Part shown: piece by piece, positions 24,053-47,735 of the stretch
Layout of the letters: every line of letters begins with the position of its first letter
Numbering within the stretch: position 1 is the stretch's first letter
Sequence record: NC_047749.1
Reading direction: 5' to 3' (one strand)
DNA length: 64,000 bases
Source: Escherichia phage DT571/2
The notes under the pieces: model-generated
The model's database searches: none
What the model was told of the DNA's origin: nothing
What the model saw: the letters and a program-made list of their open reading frames with translations, nothing else
Made by a program: the position numbers and the translations under genes

Positions 24053-24421
24053 TTACATCGCCTGAGTAAATGTACGACTAATAACATCGTTCTGCTGTTC
24101 ACGCGTCAGTGCGTTAAAACGTACAGCGTACCCTGAAACACGGATAGTTAATTGAGGGTATTTTTCAGGATGTTTCTGTGCATCCAAAAGCTGATCACGA
24201 CTTAACACATTGACATTTAGGTGTTGACCCCCTTCAATTTGAGGGGCGACTTCCACCTTGACTTCACGAAAGGATTCAGAGTCAAAGTGAGGTGTGATAC
24301 CTTCTAGATCTTCAACTAGAACTTTCTGCTTAAGTTCGCCATCTTTAGAGTACAGTTGAATAATCTGATTATTATGAACAATATTAATCACGCCAGATTT
24401 AAGATTTTGGTACGCTTTCAT
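24053..24421 (-). CDS. autonomous glycyl-radical cofactor (GrcA/YfiD-like)
   Basis: 122 aa; C-terminal glycyl-radical motif RVSGYAVRF. Confidence 0.75.
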
Positions 24422-24528
24422 TAGATCTCCCCGATGTTAGAATTTGGTAGTTAGTAGTGGGTTTGAGTCGCTGTAGTCGTTCCGAGTGCCTTAGATCGCT
24501 GGGCTATCGAAGCATTAGAATATCTACA

Positions 24529-24819
24529 TCATACACTGTCTAAGTAAGAAGTATAATGGAATTTAGTTTCTCCAGTCTTATCTACTTCTACCTCAGTTCG
24601 TGGTACTTGACGAACCACACCATGAATCATCTTATAGCGAGTGCCTTTAGCTGGTTCATAATCTTTTGAGAATACTTGTTTAACCGTTACTACTTTATAC
24701 CCTTCACGCGGTGTTAGCACTACTACTTGATCACCTTCTTTGATTCTCCAAGAAGATGGAAATTCATAGGTGTATCTTTGATCACCAGTTTGGAATACTA
24801 CAGAAAGATAACGTTTCAT
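24529..24819 (-). CDS. hypothetical protein
   Basis: 96-aa ORF. Confidence 0.55.
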   Translation of the reverse strand: MKRYLSVVFQTGDQRYTYEFPSSWRIKEGDQVVVLTPREGYKVVTVKQVFSKDYEPAKGTRYKMIHGVVRQVPRTEVEVDKTGETKFHYTSYLDSV

Positions 24820-24849
24820 TTGGTTTCCATCTCATTAATTTATATAAAT

Positions 24850-24878
24850 ATTATAGCAATAAATAAGAGAGAAAGCAA
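24850..24878 (-). promoter_or_regulatory. T5-early-type promoter
   Basis: RC of TTGCTT-17-TATAAT. Confidence 0.55.
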
Positions 24879-24893
24879 ATGAATTTTTAAATT

Positions 24894-24968
24894 TGGTGCG
24901 GGATACGAGAGTCGAACTCGTGTCTACTGGTTGGAAGCCAGTTATTCTAGCCGCTGAACTAATCACGC
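24894..24968 (-). tRNA. tRNA-Gly (anticodon UCC)
   Basis: hand fold: encoded CCA, perfect T-arm ACGAG/TTCGACT/CTCGT, anticodon arm ACTGG-CTTCCAA-CCAGT. Confidence 0.7.
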
Positions 24969-24979
24969 ATTAATTTGGT

Positions 24980-25057
24980 TGGCAGGGGATATTGGATTTG
25001 AACCAATGATCTCGACTTCAAATGCCGTAGCTTTAGGCCAAGCTAAGCTAATCCCCA
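24980..25057 (-). tRNA. tRNA-Gln (anticodon UUG), U1-U72 mismatch
   Basis: hand fold: CCA, G73, T-arm ATTGG/TTCAAAT/CCAAT, anticodon loop ATTTGAA. Confidence 0.55.
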
Positions 25058-25063
25058 ATTGTT

Positions 25064-25139
25064 TGGCAGAAGGTAGTGGATTTGAACCACTGATCAGGGT
25101 TTCAGAGACCCCAGCCTTAACCGACTTGGCTCAGGTTCT
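25064..25139 (-). tRNA. tRNA-Gln (anticodon CUG), imperfect acceptor stem
   Basis: hand fold: CCA, G73, D-arm resembling E. coli tRNA-Gln, anticodon loop CTCTGAA; 5' boundary uncertain. Confidence 0.5.
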
Positions 25140-25303
25140 TCAAGGCGCTTACCTTCATGATCTACTCGAATGAGTCCACATCCTTCGCAAACCACAACTG
25201 CACCATAACCTTCTTTGACCTCAGCTTCTGTAATCAGACCAGAAAGATCACCAGTATCTCTGCCCCACATATCAATGGAGCATTGTTTGCAGAAATCAGC
25301 CAT
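25094..25303 (-). CDS. small zinc-ribbon-like protein; 3' end overlaps tRNA-Gln
   Basis: 69 aa; CxxC...CxxC (CKQC, CEGC). Confidence 0.4.
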   Translation of the reverse strand: MADFCKQCSIDMWGRDTGDLSGLITEAEVKEGYGAVVVCEGCGLIRVDHEGKRLEEPEPSRLRLGSLKP

Positions 25304-25305
25304 AA

Positions 25306-25533
25306 TTAATCCTTATTACAAGTGGTAGAGAGGATGGTACGATCGGAGATCCAACCGCCAGTGTAAGCACCATTGACTTTATATTCAGTCAAAGTACCGT
25401 GACCACGAATAGCGAAAACTGTTAGGGTTTTCGTGCCCCCATAACCATCTTTAACAGTTACGGTACAATCTAATGATGTGCCGATAGTGCAGCCAGCTAA
25501 AGTCAGAGCAGCAATCAATACTAAGTATTTCAT
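25306..25533 (-). CDS. lipoprotein
   Basis: 75 aa; signal peptide with lipobox LAGC. Confidence 0.55.
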   Translation of the reverse strand: MKYLVLIAALTLAGCTIGTSLDCTVTVKDGYGGTKTLTVFAIRGHGTLTEYKVNGAYTGGWISDRTILSTTCNKD

Positions 25534-25556
25534 GTTGTTATCCTTGTTAAGTTAAT

Positions 25557-25631
25557 TGGTGCATCCTCAGGGAATCGAACCCCAATCGTAAAGTTCGTGG
25601 CTTTACATTCTTTCCATTGAAATAAGGACGC
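25557..25631 (-). tRNA. tRNA-Arg (anticodon ACG)
   Basis: hand fold: CCA, perfect anticodon stem TAAAG/CTTTA, loop CCACGAA (C at position 33). Confidence 0.65.
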
Positions 25632-25637
25632 AATATT

Positions 25638-25714
25638 TGGGGTGGCTAGTGGAATTCGAATCCACATAGGCCTGATTCACAATCAGGATCATTAACCAAT
25701 TATGATATAGCCAC
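25638..25714 (-). tRNA. tRNA-His (anticodon GUG)
   Basis: hand fold: perfect acceptor GTGGCTA/TAGCCAC, T-arm GTGGA/TTCGAAT/TCCAC, anticodon loop TTGTGAA, CCA encoded. Confidence 0.8.
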
Positions 25715-25938
25715 AATTGAAAACTCGCAGGGTTAGCGAAACCATCCTCAATTAGCATGTTCTAGAATACTAATCAAGTTATCTCCTATTGCACGCAGCT
25801 CAAGACGAGTACGAATTTTCAATTGTGGCGGCTCTCAGAAACTCTTCTATTCTAGCCTCAGAAGCTTACCCCCGAACGCATGTCGGGAAAGTCTTTCCAA
25901 GAGCATCAAATAGCACCGTTACACTTTGAGCCATTATT

Positions 25939-26033
25939 TGGAGGTAGGTAAGGGGATCGAACCCTTACACCGTATCACTACGATCAACCGATTTCAAGTC
26001 GGAGTCCAGCGCCAGCCGTTGGATTGACCTACC
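25939..26033 (-). tRNA. tRNA-Ser (anticodon UGA), class II
   Basis: hand fold: perfect acceptor and T-arm, anticodon loop CTTGAAA, long variable arm. Confidence 0.7.
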
Positions 26034-26045
26034 ATATAAATTGTT

Positions 26046-26136
26046 TGGCGGAAGAGGAGAGATTTGAACTCTCAAGCCGTTTTACCAGTCAGCCACTTTC
26101 CAAGCGGTTTTCGTCGCCAATTCGATTTGCTCTTCC
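26046..26136 (-). tRNA. tRNA-Ser (anticodon GGA), class II
   Basis: hand fold: perfect acceptor GGAAGAG/CTCTTCC, T-arm GAGAG/TTCAAAT/CTCTC, loop TTGGAAA. Confidence 0.65.
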
Positions 26137-26172
26137 AATAATAAGATGATGCCTCTATCACGCCAGGCAGTT

Positions 26173-26245
26173 ACGCCTCGCTGGGATTCGAACCCATTAA
26201 AACAGCTCAACCGAGATAGTAGGTTTAATTTACTCTGACCATCAA
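26173..26245 (-). tRNA. tRNA-like element (T-arm only, no acceptor pairing found)
   Basis: canonical T-arm TGGG/TTCGAAT/CCCA at 26181..26197 but no complementary 5' acceptor located. Confidence 0.3.
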
Positions 26246-26248
26246 ATT

Positions 26249-26325
26249 TGGTGCGTGACAAGGGATTCGAACCCTCAAAACCCGACTTCTAGGGACGGTA
26301 TGTATGCCAATTCCATCAATCACGC
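26249..26325 (-). tRNA. tRNA, anticodon not confidently assigned (loop CCTAGAA would give UAG)
   Basis: hand fold: CCA, good acceptor and T-arm, anticodon stem with one U-U mismatch, D-arm unclear. Confidence 0.55.
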
Positions 26326-26330
26326 GTATT

Positions 26331-26405
26331 TGGTGGAGAAAGAGGGAGTTGAACCCTCGTCTTCTGCGTGCAAAGCAGATGTTCTACCATTAAACTATAT
26401 CCCCA
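26331..26405 (-). tRNA. tRNA-Ala (anticodon UGC)
   Basis: hand fold: CCA, T-arm GAGGG/TTCAACT/CCCTC, perfect anticodon arm TCTGC-TTTGCAC-GCAGA. Confidence 0.65.
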
Positions 26406-26642
26406 AATTCTTTAGTTTACTAAGGCTATTAGCTCGGCGTAACTACAGCACCTTCACTTCGAGCGGAAGGAACCGCGTCATCTCGCAAACCCGATACACT
26501 ATTCAGTTGCCGCTGAATCTAGTGGACTAATCTAGAACCTCCCCCAAATTGTAGGGATCGTGCTTTTTGGCAGCCAGTCCTAGGTCGAGCTAATACCTTA
26601 GTGAACTATGATGAGGATTTCTCCCCATCAATTTATATAAAT

Positions 26643-26671
26643 ATTATAACAAGAAATTAAGCATCAAGCAA
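26643..26671 (-). promoter_or_regulatory. T5-early-type promoter driving the tRNA cluster
   Basis: RC of TTGCTT-17-TATAAT; no ORF downstream, leads into tRNAs. Confidence 0.55.
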
Positions 26672-26772
26672 ATGAGTTTTTCCTTGAAATTGGTAGCGGG
26701 TTCCAGTACTGCCCTGGACTTACTTAGCTTATGAGACTAAGAAGAACTCTATGCCTTCCACCCGCAATTGTT

Positions 26773-26836
26773 TGGTCAGTGCGGCAGGACTCGAACCTGC
26801 GACCTGAAGCATCCAAGGCTCCCACGCTACGCACTG
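26773..26836 (-). tRNA. atypical 64-nt tRNA-like element (no room for a D-arm)
   Basis: CCA, perfect 7-bp acceptor CAGTGCG/CGCACTG and perfect T-arm GCAGG/TTCGAGT/CCTGC, only 29 nt between them. Confidence 0.4.
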
Positions 26837-26844
26837 AAAGTTTA

Positions 26845-27192
26845 TTAGTTTAACCGTAAAGTATTATCTACTTCACCATTAATTGTTCGGCATTCCTCTG
26901 GGATTGTCGGAGTGGCCTTGTATTCCCACCACTCAGCACCGTCATATTCCCCACGTTCTAGCCAAGTTCCATCGGCAAACCATACATTACCATAAAGTAA
27001 TTGTCCACCGTATCCAGAATCATATTCAAAGTCTAGGTTATTAAGAAAATCCTCAATATCTTCTTCTGTATAACCTAAAGGTAATACCCAGACTTTTTTA
27101 TCCCCATAATACCCGAATTCTATTTTAATACACTTAACTTTAGAATTGGTATTTTTTAAGGCGAGTAATAGCTCTTCTTTAGCATTACGCAT
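26845..27192 (-). CDS. hypothetical protein
   Basis: 115-aa ORF. Confidence 0.55.
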   Translation of the reverse strand: MRNAKEELLLALKNTNSKVKCIKIEFGYYGDKKVWVLPLGYTEEDIEDFLNNLDFEYDSGYGGQLLYGNVWFADGTWLERGEYDGAEWWEYKATPTIPEECRTINGEVDNTLRLN

Positions 27193-27217
27193 AGTATATT
27201 CTCATACTGAGTTAATT

Positions 27218-27291
27218 TGGCGCGACCGATGGGATTTGAACCCACATTCCCCGTGACAGGGGAGTACCATTACCAAGCCAGCCCCTGTCGC
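27218..27291 (-). tRNA. tRNA-Asp (anticodon GUC)
   Basis: hand fold: CCA, T-arm, anticodon loop CTGTCAC. Confidence 0.7.
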
Positions 27292-27300
27292 ATAATTCAT

Positions 27301-27486
27301 TTACTCATATTTGAGTTTTTCAATAGCTGCATTAAGTTCTTTTAGAGCTTCACGACGTTCTACCTGACCTTGAAGTTCTTCAAGAAGTTCCGCTTTCAGA
27401 GTCTCAATAATTTTACCACGAACCTTGATATTATTAATCAGATTATCACGATCAGCTTCTAGTCGAGCAATTGCATGAGTTGTCAT
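27301..27486 (-). CDS. small coiled-coil protein
   Basis: 61-aa ORF. Confidence 0.45.
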   Translation of the reverse strand: MTTHAIARLEADRDNLINNIKVRGKIIETLKAELLEELQGQVERREALKELNAAIEKLKYE

Positions 27487-27513
27487 ATCTATTTCCTCAG
27501 TTATTAATGAAAA

Positions 27514-27586
27514 TGGTATCTGTGGCTGAATTCGATGTCAGCAATGATAGCTGGTTGGCTACCGGTTTACTTAACTCTACACAGAA
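27514..27586 (-). tRNA. tRNA-like element with non-canonical loops (possible pseudo-tRNA)
   Basis: CCA plus 6/7 acceptor pairing, but T-loop and anticodon loop are 8 nt. Confidence 0.3.
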
Positions 27587-27588
27587 TT

Positions 27589-27666
27589 TGGCGGGCCGTG
27601 TAGGATTCGAACCACCAACCCCGAAGGGCACGGATTTACAGACCGCTGCAATAGCCATTCTGCCAA
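27589..27666 (-). tRNA. tRNA-like element with Tyr-like anticodon loop CTGTAAA (degenerate)
   Basis: CCA, weak T-stem, variable-arm hairpin CCC-TTCG-GGG, no acceptor pairing found. Confidence 0.35.
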
Positions 27667-27750
27667 CGATGTATATTTAAAAGTATTCAAATACTTGTTT
27701 AAACACTTTTAAATATGTTTCCAACTTAGATAACTATTATATCTAGGTTT

Positions 27751-27792
27751 AAGGCACTGAGCAAGTCAGATTTTGAAGAATTTGCTCAGTGC
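27751..27792. other. stable hairpin (11-bp stem GCACTGAGCAA / TTGCTCAGTGC)
   Basis: read directly; lies in leader between promoter at 27868 and tRNAs. Confidence 0.6.
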
Positions 27793-27867
27793 TATATTAG
27801 TTAGTCGAACTTAGGAGTAACAATTAAAGAGAATGGGAGTTCGAAAACTTCATCAATTTATATAACT

Positions 27868-27897
27868 ATTATATCAGAAATTTAAAGCAAAAGGCAA
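27868..27897 (-). promoter_or_regulatory. T5-early-type promoter (tRNA leader)
   Basis: RC of TTGCCT-18-TATAAT with conserved leader. Confidence 0.45.
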
Positions 27898-27927
27898 GTA
27901 CTTTTTTAAAAATTCTGTTTGGAGGAG

Positions 27928-28134
27928 CTAAACTCCAGATTCTTCAGCCAAGTCTAGACTAATAAGAGTTATAGCCATAATTGCCGCACCGTGTTCTTTT
28001 TCTCCGGTGTTTTTAGCAGAGTCTATAATACCCTTAATCTGTTCGTAATAACTTTTTACTTCTTGTTCAATGCCGGCCTCGGCTATCATGCCTTTAGTCA
28101 TGAGTCGTTGCATGGTAATTTCACGGTTAGCCAT
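27928..28134 (-). CDS. hypothetical protein
   Basis: 68-aa ORF. Confidence 0.45.
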   Translation of the reverse strand: MANREITMQRLMTKGMIAEAGIEQEVKSYYEQIKGIIDSAKNTGEKEHGAAIMAITLISLDLAEESGV

Positions 28135-28309
28135 GATGTTTCTCCAGTTTCATCTTTAATAGTTTACAAATGAAGTCAATATCTTCATCCGTGCCTAGAT
28201 CTCTATCTTCAAGAGTTGCCTTGAAGTTTTTAGTCAACTCCATAAGGATGACTTCCCTAGAACGACGTGTTGGCGGAGGTGGATGTCTATACATCTTATT
28301 TCCTTAATT

Positions 28310-28384
28310 TGGTGGGTCGGAGGAGAATCTAACTCCTACTCGTTAGCTTATGAGGCCACCGCTTTAACTTTAAGCTACCGACCC
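28310..28384 (-). tRNA. tRNA-Met (anticodon CAU)
   Basis: hand fold: perfect acceptor GGGTCGG/CCGACCC, perfect T-arm, D-stem GCTT/AAGC, loop CTCATAA. Confidence 0.75.
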
Positions 28385-28390
28385 TATGTT

Positions 28391-28479
28391 TGGCGGAAGA
28401 AGCGGGAATCGAACCCACAAGGCTATATTTCAAACCGACAGATTAGCAATCTGCTGCAATACCGTTATGCTATTCTTCC
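28391..28479 (-). tRNA. tRNA-Ser (anticodon GCU), class II
   Basis: hand fold: perfect acceptor GGAAGAA/TTCTTCC, anticodon arm GCAGA-TTGCTAA-TCTGT, long variable arm. Confidence 0.7.
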
Positions 28480-28500
28480 GAATTTATAAGATATATTATA

Positions 28501-29037
28501 TTAGAAATTTAGCTTCATAGCAAGAAAATTTTTCAAGTTTTCGGTAGACATCTCATCCACATCTACAGGAGAAACAAACCCATCTAATTGTCTAGCAAAT
28601 TTTTCACCGGCAGGATCATTATCCCCAACAGCTACCAATTTAAAAGGTAGTAATTTCAATTGCTTTAACAACGCTTTTCCGGGGGAAGAACCCAACATTG
28701 CTAGGGCAGGATAACCAGCATTATGTAATGCTACAGCCTTAAATACAGATTCAGCAATCAATACTACTTTTTCATCCCCATTGAGAGTTTCTAGCCCCCA
28801 TACACACTGTGTGGTAGAATAAGTAAAATATCTAGCTTCAGAGGGGCACTTACCATGACCTTTTGGAGCAGAAGGATTATAAATCTGATAGCCTCTCAGC
28901 ATCCCAGAGAAGTCGTACAATGGGACTGTTAGCCATCCCTCCGGGCTTAACCAGCAATGATATTTATCTGTATCAAACCCTCTGGATAAGAGATGTTCTG
29001 TTAGTTCATCAACAGTCATATTAGATTCCTCTCTCAA
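28501..29037 (-). CDS. small Toprim-like domain protein
   Basis: 178 aa; LIAESVFKA and VAVGDNDPAGEKFA resemble Toprim E and DxD motifs. Confidence 0.5.
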   Translation of the reverse strand: MREESNMTVDELTEHLLSRGFDTDKYHCWLSPEGWLTVPLYDFSGMLRGYQIYNPSAPKGHGKCPSEARYFTYSTTQCVWGLETLNGDEKVVLIAESVFKAVALHNAGYPALAMLGSSPGKALLKQLKLLPFKLVAVGDNDPAGEKFARQLDGFVSPVDVDEMSTENLKNFLAMKLNF

Positions 29038-29048
29038 ATTATAAATAT

Positions 29049-29077
29049 ATTATACAGAGAATTTAGCATTCAAGCAA
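29049..29077 (-). promoter_or_regulatory. T5-early-type promoter
   Basis: RC of TTGCTT-17-TATAAT. Confidence 0.55.
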
Positions 29078-29163
29078 TTGAATTTTTAAACTTTTTAGTG
29101 GAAAATCTCAAGACATTTAATGGCAGCACGTTGTTGCTGTAATAAGAGTATATGGTTCTAAAG

Positions 29164-29206
29164 AACCAAACAATAAAGCCCTGCGCTCTCCAGGGAACGC
29201 AGGGCT
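29164..29206 (-). terminator. rho-independent terminator
   Basis: 9-bp GC-rich stem AGCCCTGCG/CGCAGGGCT followed on the minus strand by a U-rich tract. Confidence 0.65.
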
Positions 29207-29230
29207 TACTTCAGAGATTACATGCGGGTG

Positions 29231-30178
29231 TTATTTGTTACGCATGTCCATGATCATCTGGCCATCGTAACCAGTTCCCACAACTGTTTGCGGTACACCA
29301 CCTTGATACTTCTGAGCACGAATCATTTCAACTTCTAGTTGTTTCCAACGAATCATCTCAGGAGTAATGGTACGTTGCAGAGCGGCGTTAGCCTCAGCTT
29401 CTTTCTTAGCTGCGTACAGTTTAGCATCTGCATCACGTTCGTTTGCAATAGCTTGGTTGTTACGAGCTTCACGATCTGCTTCTGCTTGTTTAACCTTCTG
29501 CTGTGCTTCTTGTTCAACACGAGCCAACTCAGCTTTCGCAGCATTAACTTGTTCTTCACGAACTTTGGTATTCTGTACCTGTTCCATGATTACAGGCGGC
29601 AAAGTAATATCCTGAAGGAACACTTGCTTAACTGTGTAACCATAAGGGCGTGCATACTCTTCAACTTCCTGTTGAATTGCAGTTTGTAATTGAGCCTGAA
29701 TTTTAGCATCAAACAAATCTTGTGCTTTAGGAACAGACTTGCCGAACTCACGAATAGTAGACAGTAATTTTTCAGTTACATATTTGTCTAACGCTTGATC
29801 CTGAGTACCTGCATTAATACGGTTAATCGGTGCCTTAGAACCATCAAATTGTAACATAACAGTCAGGTCAACAGTGGATTTAAACTTATCCTGACTAGGA
29901 ACCTGAAGTTTATCTAATTTTACAGCAATATCTTTTGTACTAAAAGTATCGAAAGATGCAAAGGGGTTTACAAGATGGAAGCCAGGTAATACTGGGTTAG
30001 GATCTACTTTACCAAGAAATGTTTGGGTTTTAACCGTACCATCGGAAACAATAGTATATGAATTAAAAGCTAGGATTAAACCTGCTAAACCAACTACAGC
30101 ACCAATACCCCAACGTTTAATAGTGCGCATTACTTTTTGCTCAGAAGTCAGTTCTTTCATATTTTTAGTATTAAACAT
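29231..30178 (-). CDS. SPFH/band-7 (HflC/prohibitin-like) membrane protein
   Basis: 315 aa; N-terminal TM helix, SPFH-like core, Ala/Glu/Lys-rich coiled-coil tail. Confidence 0.7.
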   Translation of the reverse strand: MFNTKNMKELTSEQKVMRTIKRWGIGAVVGLAGLILAFNSYTIVSDGTVKTQTFLGKVDPNPVLPGFHLVNPFASFDTFSTKDIAVKLDKLQVPSQDKFKSTVDLTVMLQFDGSKAPINRINAGTQDQALDKYVTEKLLSTIREFGKSVPKAQDLFDAKIQAQLQTAIQQEVEEYARPYGYTVKQVFLQDITLPPVIMEQVQNTKVREEQVNAAKAELARVEQEAQQKVKQAEADREARNNQAIANERDADAKLYAAKKEAEANAALQRTITPEMIRWKQLEVEMIRAQKYQGGVPQTVVGTGYDGQMIMDMRNK

Positions 30179-30212
30179 GTATTTCCTTTGTTTTAGTTAC
30201 AGTTAATAAAAT

Positions 30213-30287
30213 TGGCCGAGGTGACAGGATTCGAACCTGCATAAAGGAATTTAGAAGACTCCTGCCTCTCCCTTAGACTACACCCCG
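30213..30287 (-). tRNA. tRNA-Arg (anticodon UCU)
   Basis: hand fold: CCA, acceptor with one G-U, T-arm, anticodon arm GGAGT-CTTCTAA-ATTCC. Confidence 0.65.
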
Positions 30288-30788
30288 TTTAAGTATTTTT
30301 AAGAACTCTCGTAAAAACTCTTAAAAATACAGACGATACCGGGAGAGTCATAAGTCTCACTCATTAAGTATTTCAAGACAAAATACAGTAACGTCTATTA
30401 TTTTCCAGTTTAAGTCAAGGTGACTTAGTGGTTATGCCCTGCGGTATACTGAGGACTCGGTTAGGCTAGGGTCATGACTCCCCGCTTTTTGCTGCTACTC
30501 AACAGGAATTATCGCGAATTACCTGTGCTATTGTGCACCATTAGTGGCATCTCTCATGCCAGCATTTCCCACTTTGTGGATAGTTTGAAAAACTACTCCG
30601 ATATGGAGGGAGAACTTCACTATCCTAGAATACCTTCTAAAGTTCTTCTTTAGCCTGGACATAGTTAAATCGTAATAAAACTATTCAGCAGACTGGTTGG
30701 TTAGCCTGGAACCAACTACCGCGTGGTTTAGGCAGTGCGCAACTAACCTCGGAAGCTTTTACGTTAAAAGCACCAGTTATCCAGTTCT

Positions 30789-30860
30789 TACCGATCGTAG
30801 GATTCGAACCTACATCTTCCACCAGTTACGGCTTGATAATACCGTTTATACTAGATCGGC
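30789..30860 (-). tRNA. tRNA, CCA not encoded, anticodon undetermined
   Basis: perfect T-arm GTAGG/TTCGAAT/CCTAC and 7-bp acceptor with one G-U. Confidence 0.5.
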
Positions 30861-30935
30861 AGTGTTACTACATAAGTGATTTCCACACCCCACTATCAAT
30901 AAATTAGGGAAGAATTACTCTCTAATTTATGAATA

Positions 30936-30964
30936 TATTATACAGAATATATAAGCATTTAGCA
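30936..30964 (-). promoter_or_regulatory. T5-early-type promoter (leads into tRNA at 30789)
   Basis: RC of TTGCTA-17-TATAAT. Confidence 0.55.
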
Positions 30965-30973
30965 AATGAATTT

Positions 30974-31408
30974 TTAGAAAAATTCACTAGCAATCAGAGC
31001 GGCTGTTTTACCATCATAACGCCCTGGAAACTCTGCCTTAACAGTTTTCATTAAGAGAGCTTTGGTAATACCTGGGTTTAGCTTAACCAATTCTGCAAAA
31101 TATTTACGAATTTCAGTTTCAGTCAGTTGACTTGGCTGATACTCTTGCAGCATGAAATAAAGCAGTTGCTCGTAGTCTACATCAGTAGGAACTTTCGTAC
31201 CAACTTTAATAGCACGCTGCTTTGCAGTTTCTAGAGCTTTAATCTGGGCTTTCAGATAAGCTACGAACTCGGTTCGAGTAACAACGTCTTTATTAATGCG
31301 TTGCAAGTCACCAATCATAGTCTGGAGATTGATTGCCCGCTCTTTGTCACCGTGGATACGTGCTAGACTAAGCAGTCCACGAAGGGTCATTAGAATATTT
31401 TCACCCAT
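30974..31408 (-). CDS. hypothetical protein
   Basis: 144-aa ORF. Confidence 0.55.
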   Translation of the reverse strand: MGENILMTLRGLLSLARIHGDKERAINLQTMIGDLQRINKDVVTRTEFVAYLKAQIKALETAKQRAIKVGTKVPTDVDYEQLLYFMLQEYQPSQLTETEIRKYFAELVKLNPGITKALLMKTVKAEFPGRYDGKTAALIASEFF

Positions 31409-39539: not shown

Positions 39540-41975
39540 TTAAATAGTACAACCGCCTGATGCACAACCGGCTGCTTCTTCACCAGCCCCACCACCATTT
39601 GCAGTGTTGAAGTTAGCATAATACCAAGTTTTCCACCCGTATTTAACAGCAGTCATGAAATCACGAACTACTACTGGGCCAGGAATAATTTCATTCTCAA
39701 ACTTGGTGTAGTCATAGTACATATTCGTACTGATAGACTGACTGAAGAATTTCTGCATAGTTGCTACCCATTTGATCCATTCAATACGATCCACATCGTA
39801 AGCCAGTTTATAGCTCATGAGAGTATCCCAATCAGTTGCACCTGGAGCGATTGCAATTACTTTATTCACTGCACTACCCTTAATAGATACAATCTTACGG
39901 GGTGGTTCAATAGAGTTAGTAACCCCTAACAGAACGGAAGAACTTTCTCCTGGCATCTGAGCAGTCAGAACAGAGTTACGCATACCGTATTTCAGAATAT
40001 CTGCACGCAGAGATTCCCAATCCATTTCTAGACCTACTGATACCAGCTCATCAACAGTTTTCTTGTACGTGTCGATTACCAGAGTTCCTTTGGATGGTTT
40101 AGTACGATTAAACCATTCACATGCACCTTGCTCTTTGGCTAGACGTACAGAGGCTTTATGCAGGAAGTAAGACAGTTTTTCAGCTTCACGATGAATCCAG
40201 TTACGTGCTTCAACGCCTTCATAAGCCAAACCTTCCGCCGCCATTGCACCTGCTGCGTTCATCAGACCAATACCAACGTTACGACGTTTCTTAGCTGTAT
40301 ATTCCATAGTTGGGAACGGATAATCCTGAATTTCAATAATTGTATCAACGAATTTCAGGAGGATGTAGCAAGTTTTTTCCCACTCAGCCAGAGATTCCAT
40401 GCGTCCAAGTACAACACCACCTAAGTTACACAGAGATACTTCACCAATATCCTCCGGCTTCATTTGATCAAGTTGTTCTTTTGTTTTATACAGCTCTGTA
40501 ATGTGGTGGAATGGGCGTGTAGGCTGATTAATTTCAAGGCATAAATTACTCATACGGATTGGATCAAGGAAGTTACCGTGACGATTAGATTCCCCGATGT
40601 GGTGCGCATACATACGTCCTGTTTCCATTCTGATACGTAGCCAAGTATCTAGGATTTCTTTTGCAGAGACTTTAGGAGCTGCTGGAACTGTTTTTCCTTC
40701 ATGGTCGATCTTTGTAAGAGATGCCACACGTTTCTCCGCTGCCACATAGATTTCTTCAAATTTAGCCTCGTCATCACTATAAAACGCTTCATGAACTTCT
40801 GGAGCATAGAAGTATGACATTAGCGTAATATCTTCATTTTTCAGATAACGTTTTAACAAAAGATTATTAAAGTTCAGAGAATAATCCATCTTATCGATTT
40901 TATTCTCGTCTGTAGCACGTTGCTGCTTAACCTGCATCAATTGGATGATTTCAGGGTCAAAGTAAGGATAGGATACAGTAGCAGAACCACCACGAGTTTG
41001 CTGAGTATTAGCCTTTACTGATCGGTCAATGTGTCGATAATATGGCAGTTTTCCGGAATGCGGGAATGCCCCGTTTCGCACCGGATCAGCAATTGATCGG
41101 CTTTCAAGATGATACCCGATTCCCGCTCTGGCTGCAACCATTTTGAAGACGATGTGTTCGGCTGTGTCGATTGAATCCAATGTGTCAGTGGAATCAACGA
41201 GGCAACAACTAGCAAATCCACGGTCACTAGAGCGCAAGCCAACCAATGGCGGCGTAGGAACGTTGATCTTGTGGAGCGACATTGCATTGTAGAGATCGAT
41301 TGCATCTAGAATTGTCCAATTAGGTTGAGATAACATCGCCATTGCCATACCCATATAGGCAAATTGCGGGGTTTCGTAAATTTCGCCAGTTGCGATATTA
41401 CGACGGGAATACTTATCAAAGAATTGTTTCAGTCCTCCACTAGTGAAAAGACGGTCGCGATCATGGTCGATAACCTGATTCAGAGCTTCAAATTGCTCAT
41501 CGGTAATCCATGCACTCATGTCTTCCCATGCACCTACACTAACCATATGATCGTGGAAGAAGCGTAGGGAAGGTGGTTCGAAGGAATCATAAAGACGTTT
41601 ACGCATCTGCGCAAGACGTAATTCCTTTGCGGGCACGTCGTATGCTGGGTTATCTTTGATAAGACTTTCAGCAGCTTTAATTAACGCATCCATCAGAGTA
41701 TCGGAATCTACAACCCCTTTAGGTAGAGTTTTTTGAGCAGCCATAGTAATGGCTGACCAACTTACATCAACTGTTTTGCAACCATACTCTGCCCAACCAT
41801 TGAGTTTTTCAGGAGCAAAGTCTTCTACAGTACCGTCACGTTTAATTACTTTTTCAATGCGATGGCTCATTTGGTTTTCCTTTTTATGGTTATCAGGATT
41901 TAGGAAATAGTTTACTTTATTCTCAGTCATTTGGCAAATAAAATTTTCTGATAGAAAAGGCCCGAGTATTTTCAT
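39540..41975 (-). CDS. nrdA: ribonucleotide reductase class Ia alpha subunit (start may be an internal Met)
   Basis: 811 aa; ATP-cone VIKRDGT, catalytic Cys blocks, C-terminal CxxC tail. Confidence 0.9.
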   Translation of the reverse strand: MKILGPFLSENFICQMTENKVNYFLNPDNHKKENQMSHRIEKVIKRDGTVEDFAPEKLNGWAEYGCKTVDVSWSAITMAAQKTLPKGVVDSDTLMDALIKAAESLIKDNPAYDVPAKELRLAQMRKRLYDSFEPPSLRFFHDHMVSVGAWEDMSAWITDEQFEALNQVIDHDRDRLFTSGGLKQFFDKYSRRNIATGEIYETPQFAYMGMAMAMLSQPNWTILDAIDLYNAMSLHKINVPTPPLVGLRSSDRGFASCCLVDSTDTLDSIDTAEHIVFKMVAARAGIGYHLESRSIADPVRNGAFPHSGKLPYYRHIDRSVKANTQQTRGGSATVSYPYFDPEIIQLMQVKQQRATDENKIDKMDYSLNFNNLLLKRYLKNEDITLMSYFYAPEVHEAFYSDDEAKFEEIYVAAEKRVASLTKIDHEGKTVPAAPKVSAKEILDTWLRIRMETGRMYAHHIGESNRHGNFLDPIRMSNLCLEINQPTRPFHHITELYKTKEQLDQMKPEDIGEVSLCNLGGVVLGRMESLAEWEKTCYILLKFVDTIIEIQDYPFPTMEYTAKKRRNVGIGLMNAAGAMAAEGLAYEGVEARNWIHREAEKLSYFLHKASVRLAKEQGACEWFNRTKPSKGTLVIDTYKKTVDELVSVGLEMDWESLRADILKYGMRNSVLTAQMPGESSSVLLGVTNSIEPPRKIVSIKGSAVNKVIAIAPGATDWDTLMSYKLAYDVDRIEWIKWVATMQKFFSQSISTNMYYDYTKFENEIIPGPVVVRDFMTAVKYGWKTWYYANFNTANGGGAGEEAAGCASGGCTI

Positions 41976-42014
41976 ACCCAGGCCTTCTGTGTTGTCAGTC
42001 TAGTTTTTGGCCAC

Positions 42015-42212
42015 TTAAGTTCTCAGCAGAATATCTATTGAGGTACTTAGTTCATTATAATTGAAGGGCCGATTTGGATTTGAGGTTACAATTTTCCACG
42101 CTAGGGTAGTCTTAGGACTATCTTCCCCTTCCTTACGTGTAATCATATTAGCAGCACTCAATGAGGTATGATGAATTTTAGTTTTTCGGCGTAGATGTAC
42201 AACGTTTCCCAT
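42015..42212 (-). CDS. small hypothetical protein
   Basis: ATG immediately after phoH stop; the longer track ORF 42015..42281 overlaps phoH. Confidence 0.4.
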   Translation of the reverse strand: MGNVVHLRRKTKIHHTSLSAANMITRKEGEDSPKTTLAWKIVTSNPNRPFNYNELSTSIDILLRT

Positions 42213-42213
42213 A

Positions 42214-42975
42214 CTACACCTTCCCCATGTCTTTAAAAATATCGTAGAATGCTTTAGACTCAGCAGAACGAACGTTATCAATCAATTCGATCATTGAGAA
42301 TGGGGCATTTTCATACTTCTCATAAACTTCCATAAGAAGTGCTAGACCTGAGTCACCTTTAATGTCTTTTTGGGCTATATCTCCGCAGATAATTAAACGG
42401 CAGTCTTGTCCTACACGAGTTAGGAGACAAACCATTGCCTCAACGGAAATATTCTGAGCTTCATCGACAATTACATAGGAGTTGTTGAAAGTTCTGCCAC
42501 GAGCATGTTCTATAGCCAAAAATTTAATTTTCTGACGTTCGACATATCCCTTATAGGCGTGATCACCGATGGCCCATTTCATACCATCAGCTATTGGCTC
42601 CAACCAAGGCTCTAGCTTTTCTGCTAGATCACCAGGAAGCATACCAAGAGACTTACCTAGAGGTTCATTAGGACGGACGAGAATCACTTGCTCAATATCT
42701 GAGTGAATGTCTACGAGTTCCTGAGCTGCAAGAACGGACGGAATAAAGGTTTTGCCAGTACCTGGCTCACCGATACCCACAGTCACTGTGTTGTTCTTGA
42801 TCATATTGATATATGATTTTTGCTCGCGGTTTTTACCTACTAGGGATTTAGCAACTGGGTTGACGTAATCATTAGAAAAATCAGCCTGAATTACGTTACT
42901 CTCATATTTGTTGCCACGCTTTCTTGAACCATTGCGGTTCTCTCTTTTTTGACGTGCTTTTCCCATAAATAACAC
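42214..42975 (-). CDS. phoH: PhoH-like ATPase
   Basis: 253 aa; Walker A GEPGTGKT and PhoH blocks. Confidence 0.85.
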   Translation of the reverse strand: MLFMGKARQKRENRNGSRKRGNKYESNVIQADFSNDYVNPVAKSLVGKNREQKSYINMIKNNTVTVGIGEPGTGKTFIPSVLAAQELVDIHSDIEQVILVRPNEPLGKSLGMLPGDLAEKLEPWLEPIADGMKWAIGDHAYKGYVERQKIKFLAIEHARGRTFNNSYVIVDEAQNISVEAMVCLLTRVGQDCRLIICGDIAQKDIKGDSGLALLMEVYEKYENAPFSMIELIDNVRSAESKAFYDIFKDMGKV

Positions 42976-43041
42976 TCCTATAGTGTACTTTGCTTCTAAC
43001 AGAGGATCAACAAAAGATCTTGTTTATCAACTTACAAATAT

Positions 43042-43070
43042 ATTATACCAGTATATACAGTAAAAAGCAA
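43042..43070 (-). promoter_or_regulatory. T5-early-type promoter for the phoH-nrdA operon
   Basis: RC of TTGCTT-17-TATAAT. Confidence 0.55.
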
Positions 43071-43207
43071 CTACAATTTTAAATAAGCCTATGATATTGC
43101 ATTTAAATAAAAAATTTGCTTGCTTATAAAGGTAAAAGTATGATACTAGATAATCATTTATTTATACGCGAAATACTACAGTATTAGATGGCGAAAGAAA
43201 AATTTAA

Positions 43208-43236
43208 TTGACATAGTGGGTAATATTTAGTATAAT
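43208..43236 (+). promoter_or_regulatory. consensus sigma70 promoter TTGACA-17-TATAAT
   Basis: perfect -35 and -10 hexamers with 17-bp spacer upstream of nrdD. Confidence 0.65.
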
Positions 43237-43370
43237 AAGTGTAAAAATTCTGAGGAGAAAACTAACCCACAGTAACTACTGTAAAGAGTAGAACTGTCAG
43301 TACAGAAGTTTTAACGGGGGTATAGAGGTCCTCGGTACTGTAGCTACAAAATTTATAGAGGAAATAATTA

Positions 43371-45197
43371 ATGACAGAGAATGAATTAATTGAGAATTGC
43401 AAAGGTCTGCTCACTCTAACTGCGGATAAAGACTTACAACATAATAATGCTAATAAGCCTAGTGAGATGTTCCATACTCAAAGAGACTTATTGGCCGGAG
43501 AAATCAACAAGTATCTAGTATCGCAGGAATTACCCAAACATCTATTAGACGCCCATAATCTAGGTAAGATACACATTCATGATATGGATTACAGAGCACA
43601 GGGGTACACTAACTGTTGCTTAGTAGACCTTGGTGGCATGCTGAAGAATGGTACTAAAATTGGTAATGCAAATATTGAAACTCCTAAATCCATAACTACT
43701 GCATGTGCAATCACTGCTCAGATTATTGCACAAGTATCTGGTGCTCAGTATGGTGGCACCTCTATTGATCGTATCGACGAGGTTCTAGCCCCGTATGTCA
43801 GAAAGTCTTACAATAAACATCTGGGTCGTGGTCTACGTTGGCTCAAGGATGAAAGAAAAGCTGCCGTGTACGCTACTGAGCTTACTGAAAAAGAGTGTTA
43901 TGATGCATTCCAAGCCCTAGAGTATGAAACTAATTCATTATTTAACTCTAACGGACAGACTCCTTTTGTTACGCTTGGCTTTGGGCTAGGACAGGGGTGG
44001 GAGGAAAGGATGATTCAGAAAGCCATCCTCCAAAATCGTATTAAAGGTTTAGGTGCTGCTGAGTCAACCCCTATCTTCCCTAAACTAGTATTCTCAGTTA
44101 AAGAAGGATTAAATAAAAATCCAGGCGATCCTAACTACGATATAAAACAGCTAGCACTTGAGTGTTCTGCTACCCGTATGTACCCGGACTATTTAAGTTA
44201 CGAGAAAGTTGTAGCTGTTACTGGTGATTTTAAAGCTCCTATGGGTTGTCGTAGTTTTTTATCTGCTATCCCCTCTGGAGAAATTGCAGGGCGTAATAAT
44301 TTAGGTGTAGTGTCTATCAATCTACCTATGGTTGCTGCTGAGGCAGATGGAGTTTTTGAAGATTTCTGGGATATTCTAGACAAATATGTGGATGAGGCTT
44401 TTGAAGCACATGACTTCTTCTTAAACAGACTGAAGAAAGTTAAGGCTAAACAAGCCCCTATTCTTTATATGCACGGTGGTTTTGGTGTACGTTTAGATGG
44501 GGAAGAGTATGTATGGCCTATTTTTGAAGGTAGATCCTCTGTATCTCTTGGGTATATTGGGGTCTATGAGATGTGTCAAATAATGTTTAGTTTACCACAG
44601 ACTCATAGGGACTGTATTGAATTTACAGAGGAGGTTCTCACTCACCTAAAAAATCGTTGCGAAGTTAAAGCTAATGAGACTAATCTTGGGTTTAGCTTGT
44701 ATGCAACTCCTAGTGAGTCTCTATGTAATCGCTTTAATAAACTACTGGAACGTAGGTTCCCTGAGTATTCTTGGCTAACAGATAAAGGTTATCTCACTAA
44801 TAGTCATCATTTGGACGTAAGGGAGAAGGTAGCTCCAGATACTAAATTTGAGTATGAAGCTCATTTCACCAAAATAGCTAATGGTGGTAATATATCATTT
44901 GTGGAACTACCACAAATGAAAAAGTTCCATAAAGCTCTTGAATACGTAGTAGATAAGGGACTAGAATGTAGCCATTATATTGGTGTTAATATACCGATTG
45001 ATGAGTGCTTCAACTGTGGGTATATGGGTGAATCTGTTGCCTCTGAACGTGGGTTTGTATGTCCGAGTTGTGGATCTGAAGAAATAGAGGTTACACGTAG
45101 GGTTTGCGGGTACCTGGGGTCCCCGGGCAGTAGGCCTTTCAATTCTGGGAAACAAAAAGAAGTGCTTGGTAGAGTAAAACACTTAAATCTTAAGTAA
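43371..45197 (+). CDS. nrdD: anaerobic ribonucleoside-triphosphate reductase
   Basis: 608 aa; C-terminal glycyl-radical motif RVCGYLG and zinc ribbon CFNCGY...CPSCGS. Confidence 0.9.
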   Translation: MTENELIENCKGLLTLTADKDLQHNNANKPSEMFHTQRDLLAGEINKYLVSQELPKHLLDAHNLGKIHIHDMDYRAQGYTNCCLVDLGGMLKNGTKIGNANIETPKSITTACAITAQIIAQVSGAQYGGTSIDRIDEVLAPYVRKSYNKHLGRGLRWLKDERKAAVYATELTEKECYDAFQALEYETNSLFNSNGQTPFVTLGFGLGQGWEERMIQKAILQNRIKGLGAAESTPIFPKLVFSVKEGLNKNPGDPNYDIKQLALECSATRMYPDYLSYEKVVAVTGDFKAPMGCRSFLSAIPSGEIAGRNNLGVVSINLPMVAAEADGVFEDFWDILDKYVDEAFEAHDFFLNRLKKVKAKQAPILYMHGGFGVRLDGEEYVWPIFEGRSSVSLGYIGVYEMCQIMFSLPQTHRDCIEFTEEVLTHLKNRCEVKANETNLGFSLYATPSESLCNRFNKLLERRFPEYSWLTDKGYLTNSHHLDVREKVAPDTKFEYEAHFTKIANGGNISFVELPQMKKFHKALEYVVDKGLECSHYIGVNIPIDECFNCGYMGESVASERGFVCPSCGSEEIEVTRRVCGYLGSPGSRPFNSGKQKEVLGRVKHLNLK

Positions 45198-45204
45198 GCT
45201 AATC

Positions 45205-45240
45205 AGCCAGGTTGCTAGTCGACCTGGCTTTTATTTTATT
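45205..45240 (+). terminator. rho-independent terminator after nrdD
   Basis: 8-bp stem AGCCAGGT/ACCTGGCT then TTTTATTTTATT. Confidence 0.7.
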
Positions 45241-45268
45241 TGCTTTCAGCCAAAAATTTATATATAAT
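45240..45268 (+). promoter_or_regulatory. T5-early-type promoter
   Basis: TTGCTT-17-TATAAT then GAGAGG leader. Confidence 0.6.
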
Positions 45269-45296
45269 AGATTTGTAAATTTGAGAGGAGAAAGCT

Positions 45297-45509
45297 ATGA
45301 GGATTCATAAGGTAGATAAAGATCGTATCTATTTTGTTATGGACTCCGGAGCATATGGATCTATTCTAAGAGAAGATGTTACTAAATTTTGCTTAATAAA
45401 TACTTGGATGGATAAGGAGAAGATTGACCCTAGATCAGGCATATGCTTATCGGAACCAGCTCTTTTAATTGCAAATGCAGAAATTGAATTGTTTGAGGAC
45501 ATAGAATGA
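45297..45509 (+). CDS. hypothetical protein
   Basis: 70-aa ORF. Confidence 0.5.
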   Translation: MRIHKVDKDRIYFVMDSGAYGSILREDVTKFCLINTWMDKEKIDPRSGICLSEPALLIANAEIELFEDIE

Positions 45510-45736
45510 AAAACGTAAAACACCTTAAATATCGCTTAATTTATAACGGACGTATGGAAACAGAAGAGCTAGCTCAATTAGCTATTAACTCTAATGAGGT
45601 TATGGTGCGTGCGCTAGCAATTGAAAAGTTGCGTGCTTCTTATGAAAGCCGTATTATGCGGCTGGAGGAAACCCTTTATGGACTTCTTGAATCAGAAGCT
45701 AGAAGCAACCCAGAGGACAGGCCTACTAAGCAATAG
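45506..45736 (+). CDS. hypothetical protein
   Basis: 76-aa ORF. Confidence 0.5.
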   Translation: MKNVKHLKYRLIYNGRMETEELAQLAINSNEVMVRALAIEKLRASYESRIMRLEETLYGLLESEARSNPEDRPTKQ

Positions 45737-45789
45737 AAGGTATGTATATAGGGAGTAATTTTACCTCAAAACATTATCGAAGGATTTAA

Positions 45790-46629
45790 GTGAGGAATTG
45801 TACAGTGCGTAGATTAATTATTATTAGCGGTGCAGGTTTGAGTGTTGAAAGTGGTGTACGAGCCTTCCGTACTGATACTGCTAGTGGTAAAGCATTGTGG
45901 GATGATTATGATCTAGAAGAAGTATGTAATATTCATGCCTTTCGGGGTAATTTTTACCATAAAACCCACACGTTTTACAACAAACGTCGTGAAGAGTTAG
46001 AAACTGTTGAACCCAATCTTGCACACTTGCGTATTGGTGAATGGTATAAGAAATACCCAGGTCAAGTAGTAAACTTGACTACTAACGTTGATGATCTTAT
46101 TGAGCGTGCTGGCGTTCCACATAGTGACATTCTGCACATTCATGGATACTTAAAGGAGGTTGTTGTAGCTGATAGCTACAACAGTAGTAATAAACGAATT
46201 ATTGATGTTGGGTATAACTCTATTGACCCAGATGATTATAAATGGGTTAAACCTAATGTAGTCTTCTTTGGTGAGCATGCTCCAGCGTACGCAGAAATGT
46301 ATAATATTTTTGATGGTATTACCAGTCAAGATATGATCATTATGGTTGGTTGCTCTAACCAAGTAATTAACTTCTACTGGGAATTATTCCCTGTTCTTAA
46401 TCTGACTGCTGCAAAACTTATGGTGGTTAACTACTACGATAGTGCTCTAGCGGTGGGACCAGGCTATCAAGGTATGACTCGTAGTGAGATGTACCAACTG
46501 GAAGAACGGGGTATTCCTTACTGGGGTAAAGGTGCGGTAGATGCTTTCAGTGACCCTGATTTTATTGCTCGTGTGGAAGCCCATCTAGAGGGTAGACCTT
46601 ATATGCCGGGAAAACAGATATGTCCATAG
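45790..46629 (+). CDS. Sir2-family (sirtuin-like) NAD-binding protein
   Basis: 279 aa; GAGLSVESGVRAFR, TTNVDDL, HIHGYL, VVFFGE; no zinc-ribbon Cys. Confidence 0.75.
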   Translation: MRNCTVRRLIIISGAGLSVESGVRAFRTDTASGKALWDDYDLEEVCNIHAFRGNFYHKTHTFYNKRREELETVEPNLAHLRIGEWYKKYPGQVVNLTTNVDDLIERAGVPHSDILHIHGYLKEVVVADSYNSSNKRIIDVGYNSIDPDDYKWVKPNVVFFGEHAPAYAEMYNIFDGITSQDMIIMVGCSNQVINFYWELFPVLNLTAAKLMVVNYYDSALAVGPGYQGMTRSEMYQLEERGIPYWGKGAVDAFSDPDFIARVEAHLEGRPYMPGKQICP

Positions 46630-46802
46630 TTAAATCTGTGTATACACATCCCGATGATATATTTGTATGGGCGGATGGTAGTTGGTGTTATCGATGTGAG
46701 TTATGGGAAATGGACTATAAATCCGATGACTATGGTGTCATATATGTTGATACGGTTGAGTATGATATGTTCTTAGAAAGGAACAAAAATGGAAATAAGT
46801 AA
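46620..46802 (+). CDS. hypothetical protein
   Basis: 60-aa ORF. Confidence 0.45.
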   Translation: MSIVKSVYTHPDDIFVWADGSWCYRCELWEMDYKSDDYGVIYVDTVEYDMFLERNKNGNK

Positions 46803-47295
46803 TACTCCAATTATTTTTCTAGACATTGATGGGGTGCTCAACTCGAGCATCTCCCATCACCATGCACCTGATGATGAAAAGATTTTCTTTGGAAGTGACT
46901 GGGTTTTTAAACCGCTTCTCAAGGCTTTTCAGGACTTTATTCGTCCTTCTCCAATAATGATTGTTGGGGTATCTTCATGGTTCTCTGTCAGGAATGAGGT
47001 GGAGAACGTTCAGATTATGACCAGATTAGATCTTATCGATCGTTTTCTTGGTATAACGGATTTTACTGGTGGTGGGCTATCTAGGGGTAATTCTGTTCTT
47101 CGCTTCGTCGAAAAGCATAAGCTCAAACATTGGTGTGTGCTGGATGATGCTGGTGCTATGATGTATCAGTATCCAACAGTTATAGTCAACGGTAGAACTG
47201 GAATAAATCTTCAAGACTTAAGAGCTGTTAGCTATATGTTAGAATTTAGTCCAGATCTTGAAATGTGTAAAGCCCTACAACAATTTAAGGTGTAA
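46789..47295 (+). CDS. HAD-like hydrolase
   Basis: 168 aa; motif I FLDIDGVLN, later VLDDAG. Confidence 0.6.
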   Translation: MEISNTPIIFLDIDGVLNSSISHHHAPDDEKIFFGSDWVFKPLLKAFQDFIRPSPIMIVGVSSWFSVRNEVENVQIMTRLDLIDRFLGITDFTGGGLSRGNSVLRFVEKHKLKHWCVLDDAGAMMYQYPTVIVNGRTGINLQDLRAVSYMLEFSPDLEMCKALQQFKV

Positions 47296-47297
47296 AT

Positions 47298-47726
47298 ATG
47301 TTCAATAATGTATTCTCTAAAGAAGCTAACCCAATATTGGTTAATTTTTGGCGTACTCTTCCAGCCAACCTGTACAATGAGGCTATTAATGCTCTGAAAA
47401 TATGGTGTGAGAATAATGAAATCTCCTTTGCTTTTAAGGATGAGATTGAAGAAGCTCCCTGTATTGGTTTAATTGTGCAGGTAGAGGATGGCTTTGAAGA
47501 GATTATCGGATGGAAAGAGCTGGATGAAATGGGATTGGTTTTTGCATTAAACTATAAGCTATTTATGCCCAATAAACACCGTATTGTTGTTAATTATAAA
47601 ACCAGTGAATCTCCGGGCTTTCAAGTTAATGAACATTACGGTTGGTCTTACTCACCGGAAGAAGTAAATGATGGTATCCAAAGACTTCGTCGTTTTGGTT
47701 ATCAAATTCCGGGTTTAACCGCCTAA
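47298..47726 (+). CDS. hypothetical protein, tandem paralog A
   Basis: 142 aa; shares blocks with the next ORF. Confidence 0.55.
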   Translation: MFNNVFSKEANPILVNFWRTLPANLYNEAINALKIWCENNEISFAFKDEIEEAPCIGLIVQVEDGFEEIIGWKELDEMGLVFALNYKLFMPNKHRIVVNYKTSESPGFQVNEHYGWSYSPEEVNDGIQRLRRFGYQIPGLTA

Positions 47727-47735
47727 GGGGACACA

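Follow-up and report, generated by a model that had tools for sequence, protein, structure and literature searches.

Mitochondrial tRNAs that have lost the D-arm work together with co-adapted synthetases, EF-Tu and ribosomes. According to a review, D-armless tRNAs are found in mitochondria only, where modifications of the m1A9 type aid their folding, charging and binding to EF-Tu (PMC7609411); the D-armless mt-tRNA-Ser(GCU) is charged by a shape-selective mt-SerRS (PMC9976931). The proline identity set in E. coli includes C1-G72, A73, G35, G36 and the G15:C48 Levitt pair (PMC9976931). In T5-like phages, tRNA content differs between BF23 and T5 (PMC10644984), and T5 variants without 11 or 17 of the 24 tRNA genes still infect (PMC12409363).

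Here we describe a 64-nt tRNA-like element on the minus strand, at 26773..26836, of a 64,000-nt stretch of DNA from Escherichia phage DT571/2 (NC_047749.1; this whole stretch is the window in what follows). The element lies in the tRNA cluster of a T5-like phage (Tequintavirus) whose nearest relatives are DT57C and Gostya9, with 98.7% and 97.1% identity, respectively, over 24500-31000. All tRNA genes of the cluster are on the minus strand, interspersed with small ORFs and with what the DT57C and BF23 annotations call 'stable RNAs'. An earlier note, made from the sequence alone, had reported an encoded CCA, a perfect 7-bp acceptor stem and a perfect T-arm with only 29 nt between them, and reading the minus strand from 26836 to 26773 bears out each of these features. 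Our analysis indicates that the element is probably a recently inactivated T5-type tRNA-Pro(UGG) gene, that is, a pseudogene.

The acceptor stem is formed by CAGUGCG (26830..26836, positions 1-7), the full complement of CGCACUG (26777-26783), which is followed by the discriminator A73 (26776) and the encoded CCA (26773-26775). The anticodon arm (26806..26822) consists of GGAGC (26822-26818), the loop CUUGGAU (26817-26811) and GCUUC (26810-26806); it is the same as in the majority T5-type allele, and carries the anticodon UGG (26813-26815) with both U33 and A37 in place. The variable loop AGGUC (26801..26805) has A44 where the majority has G44. The T-arm (26784..26800), which is invariant in all T5-type copies, is made up of GCAGG (26800-26796), the loop UUCGAGU (26795-26789) and CCUGC (26788-26784). 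Watson-Crick pairs account for 7/7 positions of the acceptor stem and 5/5 of the T-stem.

Between the 5' acceptor strand and the T-stem, the 17-nt anticodon arm and the 5-nt variable loop take up all but 7 of the 29 nt, so that only 7 nt are left for the D-arm, versus about 19-20 in a normal tRNA (positions 8-26). This connector, UAGCGUG (26823..26829), comprises U8, A9, a leftover GCGU from the 3' strand of the D-stem, and G26, and stands opposite a 12-nt gap in alignments with full-length orthologues. The element thus has the acceptor stem, discriminator and CCA of a canonical tRNA, an anticodon arm with U33 and a T-arm of the UUCRANY type, but neither a D-arm with G18-G19 nor a 15:48 Levitt pair. 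Four of the proline identity elements, C1-G72 (the same as in E. coli tRNA-Pro), A73, G35 and G36, are kept, while G15:C48 is destroyed.

Three lines of evidence, the Rfam tRNA model (RF00005), the mitochondrial mode of ARAGORN and orthology, identify the whole element, encoded CCA included, as the remnant of a tRNA-Pro(UGG) gene. The Rfam model scores it at 44.6 bits against a gathering score of 29 (E = 3e-6 over the 64-kb window), and its likeness to tRNA is far above chance. The alignment to the model places 0 nt in the D-arm versus 11 model positions, in agreement with the earlier note's view that the element is tRNA-derived, has no room for a D-arm and is not a normal 76-nt tRNA. That view was to be given up if automated annotation extended a canonical cloverleaf over the site; ARAGORN in its standard and -ps modes made no tRNA call at the element, and no canonical cloverleaf can be drawn. 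In mitochondrial mode, ARAGORN reports mtRNA-Pro(tgg) over exactly these 64 nt. Structure prediction, which the note had proposed as a check, favored a long hairpin for the 64-mer (minimum free energy -25.0 kcal/mol, z = -1.26) over the three-arm fold, which at -21.9 kcal/mol makes up about 0.7% of the ensemble. For the intact BF23 tRNA-Pro, too, a misfolded structure is predicted, with a minimum of -31.5 versus -23.7 kcal/mol for the cloverleaf, so thermodynamic folding does not discriminate in this case.

Upstream of the element is a minus-strand ORF of 115 aa (26845-27192), a homologue of T5.067 (phrog_3972). The coding-sequence stop that had been placed 9 nt away is its TAA at 26847-26845; with the element starting at 26836, eight bases lie between the two. 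The same phrog_3972 ORF precedes tRNA-Pro in DT57C, ESCO30, HZ_ZJUN2 and NR01, and the downstream flank is conserved as well. In the DT57C annotation, a 76-nt tRNA-Pro sits in the same place, at the same 9-nt offset from the same ORF. The BF23 tRNA-Pro (tRNAP, AJ604530) has a different context, after a promoter and beside tRNA-fMet. We found no terminator-like site in 26200-27700, and the 3 promoter-like sites in this interval compare with a mean of 3.8 in shuffled sequence, none near the element rising above the shuffled expectation. On the plus strand, an antisense ORF of 40 aa (26731-26853) was considered as a gene and rejected even though the 12-nt deletion preserves its frame: an internal stop interrupts it in HZ_ZJUN2, the start is absent in BF23, and its changes are non-conservative.

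The orthologue of the element is the ordinary 76-nt tRNA-Pro(UGG) gene of T5-like phages (DT57C, ESCO30, ESCO40 and BF23), and in alignments with these genes the 12-nt gap is the only difference in length. The majority 76-nt allele reads CAGTGCGTAGCG CAGTTGGTAGCG TGGGAGCCTTGGATGCTTCGGGTC..., followed by the T-arm. Its first 24 nt consist of two tandem 12-nt units, CAGTGCGTAGCG and CAGTTGGTAGCG, that match at 10/12 positions and share the exact 6-nt direct repeat GTAGCG; acceptor-plus-D-stem sequence in one unit and D-loop-plus-D-stem sequence in the other together make up this tandem near-repeat. The element keeps one 12-nt unit, and exactly one unit is gone. Because GTAGCG is repeated, the junction of the deletion is placed within 26824-26830 as a whole. 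At the retained positions the element is identical to the majority allele at 63/64 sites; the single difference, G44A, is also present in full-length copies, which come from phi92-like phages.

The bases that are missing correspond to positions 10-21: the D-stem has lost its 5' strand, and nothing is left of the D-loop with its G15 and G18-G19. The lesion takes universally conserved parts out of an intact gene and would be disabling. Judged from the sequence, the loss of 12 nt appears to be a classic footprint of slippage at a short direct repeat, and the deletion would have arisen through replication slippage or unequal pairing between the two 12-nt units.

The remnant is probably still transcribed, given its position within the early transcription unit of the tRNA cluster. 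RNase P needs mainly the acceptor/T-arm helix of its substrates and cleaves acceptor/T-arm minihelices. The remnant may still be excised from the polycistronic transcript by RNase P; with its acceptor/T-arm helix intact and its CCA encoded, it could yield a 64-nt RNA after RNase P cleavage and 3' trimming. Such an RNA would be without the D-loop/T-loop elbow and without the G15:C48 pair used by E. coli ProRS, and for these reasons it would be expected to be a poor substrate, or none, for charging and for the bacterial ribosome. The phage would have no need of it, as the host supplies tRNA-Pro and T5 variants without many tRNA genes are viable; with tRNA-Pro dispensable, the gene would be drifting, as several neighboring tRNA genes in the clade appear to be.

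The D-armless form is rare. Among 50,697 phage records searched in blastn mode, an ungapped match across the junction was found only in Gostya9 (MH203051, 27844-27907 region), where no tRNA is annotated and ARAGORN finds none. A megablast search with a 35-nt junction query returned nothing; the Gostya9 sequence differs inside every possible 28-nt seed word of this query. The T-arm and 3' acceptor strand matched 16 contigs in IMG/VR, every one a 76-nt gene, and the junction 17-mer had 0 matches there. In the JGI metagenomes the 17-mer occurs at 43 loci, none of which continues as a tRNA; we rejected these as further copies, since the downstream sequence is unrelated to tRNA and the matches are due to chance. 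The pattern is not that of a D-armless form conserved across a lineage under purifying selection.

In the upstream ORF, the window is closer to Gostya9 (6 mismatches versus 12), while in the downstream flank Gostya9 groups with DT57C (2 versus 4 and 7). Since the two sides group differently, a recombination point lies in or next to the element, and on the sequence the deletion is compatible with a single event as well as with two. The genome is mosaic on a larger scale as well: about 3.4 kb (approximately 27207-30650) has zero mismatches to DT57C, 24400-27206 is 2-4% different from both DT57C and Gostya9, and in 40000-48000 (the nrd/phoH region) the best match is Gostya9.

We measured constraint at the locus in an alignment of the window, DT57C and Gostya9 across the tRNA cluster, leaving out the misaligned tRNA-Arg region. 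In the tRNA-Pro locus, 7/64 sites are variable, in addition to the indel. This compares with 7/696 sites in the nine intact tRNA genes (Fisher p = 4.7e-5 versus the Pro locus) and 161/4618 sites in the remaining sequence (Fisher p = 0.0075). For the two deletion carriers alone, 4/64 sites are variable versus 7/696 (p = 0.0096). The Pro locus thus evolves about ten times faster than the adjoining intact tRNA genes, the relaxed constraint that marks a tRNA pseudogene. Among the three sister phages the variable sites bunch in the anticodon arm, with 6 within 15 nt. The raised variation could in part reflect patchy recombination of alleles and not decay. A second cluster in the same three genomes, with 7 variable sites packed into 16 nt at 26539-26554, falls in the region of the stable RNA 'RNA 2H' and suggests either patchy recombination or fast local change in a non-coding RNA.

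The window and Gostya9 differ in the anticodon stem by a compensated pair, G30-C40 versus U30-A40. The deletion form is present in two distinct phages, and the compensated pair taken alone could look like a maintained structure. We do not read it as evidence of maintenance, however, because both variants exist in full-length genes. It also speaks against a pseudogene that all of the surviving helices are perfect and that C1-G72, A73, G35, G36 and the CCA are intact, so that some charging is conceivable.

Other copies of the gene have been damaged as well. Rfam scores of tRNA-Pro copies are 69.1 bits in HZ_ZJUN2, 58.5 in ESCO30/40, 45.6 in DT57C, 44.6 in the window and 33.4 in Gostya9. The Gostya9 copy, with 4 differences from the window in the element itself and several more in the flanks, has C33 in place of the universal U33. 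The full-length tRNA-Pro of DT57C (KM979354, 2771-2846 of the compared stretch, minus strand) is annotated as UGG, yet CGG stands at its anticodon; two pairs of the anticodon stem are mismatched, the acceptor stem contains a G-U pair, and the gene is probably decaying too. Further tRNA-Pro(UGG) genes at 427-500 in HZ_ZJUN2 and about 425-500 in NR01 (coordinates of the compared stretches) have quite different D-arms and anticodon arms. The HZ_ZJUN2 gene retains the T5-type acceptor and T arms; that of NR01 is different over its whole length and gave no reported match at E <= 0.01. To judge from these sequences, alleles appear to be replaced particularly often at the tRNA-Pro position.

Neighboring tRNA genes show comparable lesions. 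A tRNA-Asp(GUC) remnant at 27221-27291 on the minus strand has lost 3 nt (AGA) where the anticodon stem meets the variable loop, relative to BF23/T5, and a C-to-A change breaks an acceptor pair. It scores 27.9 bits, below the Rfam gathering score of 29, and ARAGORN is silent; DT57C has the same lesion, yet its copy is annotated as 'tRNA-Asp(UGG)'. At approximately 24443-24520 (minus strand), about 180 nt that DT57C and Gostya9 possess are missing, so that the 5' part of tRNA-Ile(GAU) runs straight into the 3' part of tRNA-Met; the acceptor halves of this fusion are not complementary, and no tRNA is called. From these lesions, the tRNA cluster of the DT57C/Gostya9 group appears to be eroding gene by gene.

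Some tRNA-Ser sequences of the cluster were recovered poorly or oddly by the same programs. Two genes with long variable arms, at 25943-26033 and 26050-26136 on the minus strand (UGA and GGA in the DT57C annotation), are both missed by ARAGORN and appear as sub-threshold tRNA-Sec matches of 38.3 and 19.7 bits, respectively. The second is identical to BF23 tRNAS2, and the first is strongly diverged from BF23 tRNAS1 in its 5' half. ARAGORN also calls a tRNA-Ser with the odd anticodon ACU at 30788-30861 (minus strand; Rfam 39 bits), within the 'RNAX, stable RNA with unknown functions' of DT57C and BF23, and the tRNA-Ser(ACU) call is repeated in DT57C, BF23 and Gostya9.

The earlier note had suggested a minimal tRNA, a tRNA mimic or a processing signal. 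The tRNA origin stands, but a selected function of any of these kinds fits poorly with an orthologue that differs by one repeat unit, a single other carrier, evolution about ten times faster than that of intact neighbors, and other lesions in the sister phages. As a processing signal, the remnant would have been kept because its acceptor/T-arm helix directs cleavage by RNase P, and this cleavage would define the ORF mRNA at its 3' end and, downstream, the RNA 2H region at its 5' end, regardless of any decoding by the RNA. The element begins 8 nt past the stop codon of the ORF, the counts of terminator-like and promoter-like sites make co-transcription plausible, neither the window nor Gostya9 shows a change in the acceptor stem, T-arm or CCA, and minihelices of this kind are known to be cleaved by RNase P. 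An intact helix would be expected anyway after a recent deletion, however; all relatives have the same acceptor and T arms, which leaves no time over which maintenance could be tested; and the different setting of the BF23 gene shows that tRNA-Pro is not tied to this ORF. We therefore regard this explanation as unlikely. A different objection to a pseudogene is that the 12-nt gap is an error of sequencing or assembly in a stretch containing repeats. While a short tandem repeat is indeed prone to alignment or assembly slips, the same gap is present in the separately deposited Gostya9 genome, the differences between the two genomes in the element and its flanks mean that they are not copies of one sequence, and a clean loss of 12 nt is untypical of read errors. 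We give an artefact next to no credence.

That the 64-nt RNA is made, processed, charged with proline and used on E. coli ribosomes, or else is selected as a mimic or decoy, seems to us highly improbable. For a functional D-armless tRNA-Pro, host ProRS would have to charge the 64-nt RNA and CCN codons would have to be decoded with it on E. coli ribosomes. The mitochondrial mode of ARAGORN accepts the element as a D-armless tRNA-Pro(tgg), the form is common to two phages, and the anticodon arm, variable loop and T-arm are intact together with C1-G72, A73, G35, G36 and CCA. The deletion has nevertheless taken the G15:C48 identity pair and the G18-G19 partners of the elbow; tRNAs of the D-armless kind are confined to mitochondria in the review cited (PMC7609411); the Gostya9 copy is without U33; the locus changes faster than both the intact tRNA genes and the background; and neither IMG/VR nor the JGI metagenomes contain the form. 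A working tRNA is very unlikely on this evidence. As a decoy, the RNA would play no part in translation and would instead bind or distract a host factor, for instance a modification enzyme or a defence nuclease that targets tRNA. There is precedent in the tRNAs of phage T5, which counter tRNA-cleaving defences such as PARIS and retron Eco7 (PMC10644984, PMC12409363), and the concentration of variable sites in the anticodon arm might be taken as a sign of such a role. Those variants, however, are either alleles of full-length genes or changes that break the stem, no defence system targeting tRNA-Pro was found in the literature examined, and only two genomes have the form, all of which makes a decoy extremely unlikely.

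If the element is a pseudogene, as we think probable, slippage between the two halves of its 5' region would have disabled a phage tRNA gene in a single step. Generic covariance models score such remnants above threshold, and they can be mis-counted as tRNAs. For T5-like phages this calls for caution in annotation: the damaged Pro and Asp copies of DT57C both carry a tRNA annotation. Were the 64-nt RNA functional after all, it would take working D-armless tRNAs beyond mitochondria for the first time, by way of one repeat-mediated deletion, and would offer a natural experiment on whether bacterial translation can make use of such a tRNA; the evidence points away from this.

Among known systems, the T5-type tRNA-Pro(UGG) gene is the closest to the element, with which it shares the locus, acceptor stem, anticodon arm, T-arm, discriminator and CCA; it has the 12 nt of 5' D-stem strand and D-loop that the element has lost, and the intact ESCO30/40 genes score 58.5 versus 44.6 bits. 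The Gostya9 remnant has the identical 12-nt deletion and the same flanking ORF, acceptor arm and T-arm as the window, and differs in having U30-A40, C33 and G44 in place of G30-C40, U33 and A44, and in a downstream flank that groups with DT57C. In layout, the element resembles the D-armless tRNAs of mitochondria (mammalian mt-tRNA-Ser(GCU) and nematode mt-tRNA-Ser), with a 7-bp acceptor stem, a connector, an anticodon arm and a T-arm. Those tRNAs are stably inherited across whole clades with co-adapted partners, whereas the element appears to be a one-step deletion of a canonical bacterial-type tRNA, present in two phages and with no sign of constraint. RNA1, RNA2 and RNA3 of T5/BF23 ('tRNA-like RNA with unknown functions') are, like the element, degenerate tRNA-related sequences of the same cluster; they are separate loci, some of them much longer, while the element is clearly traced to an intact parent gene, from which a defined lesion separates it. 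Finally, the prokaryotic tRNA pseudogenes and fragments described in the passages of van der Gulik et al. (2023, PMC9897764) that concern us here resemble the element in scoring above generic thresholds with a required part absent, and are prone to be mis-annotated or missed. The fragments treated in those passages come from mobile-element integration or CRISPR-Cas activity, whereas the element would derive from an internal, repeat-mediated deletion that kept both ends of the gene.
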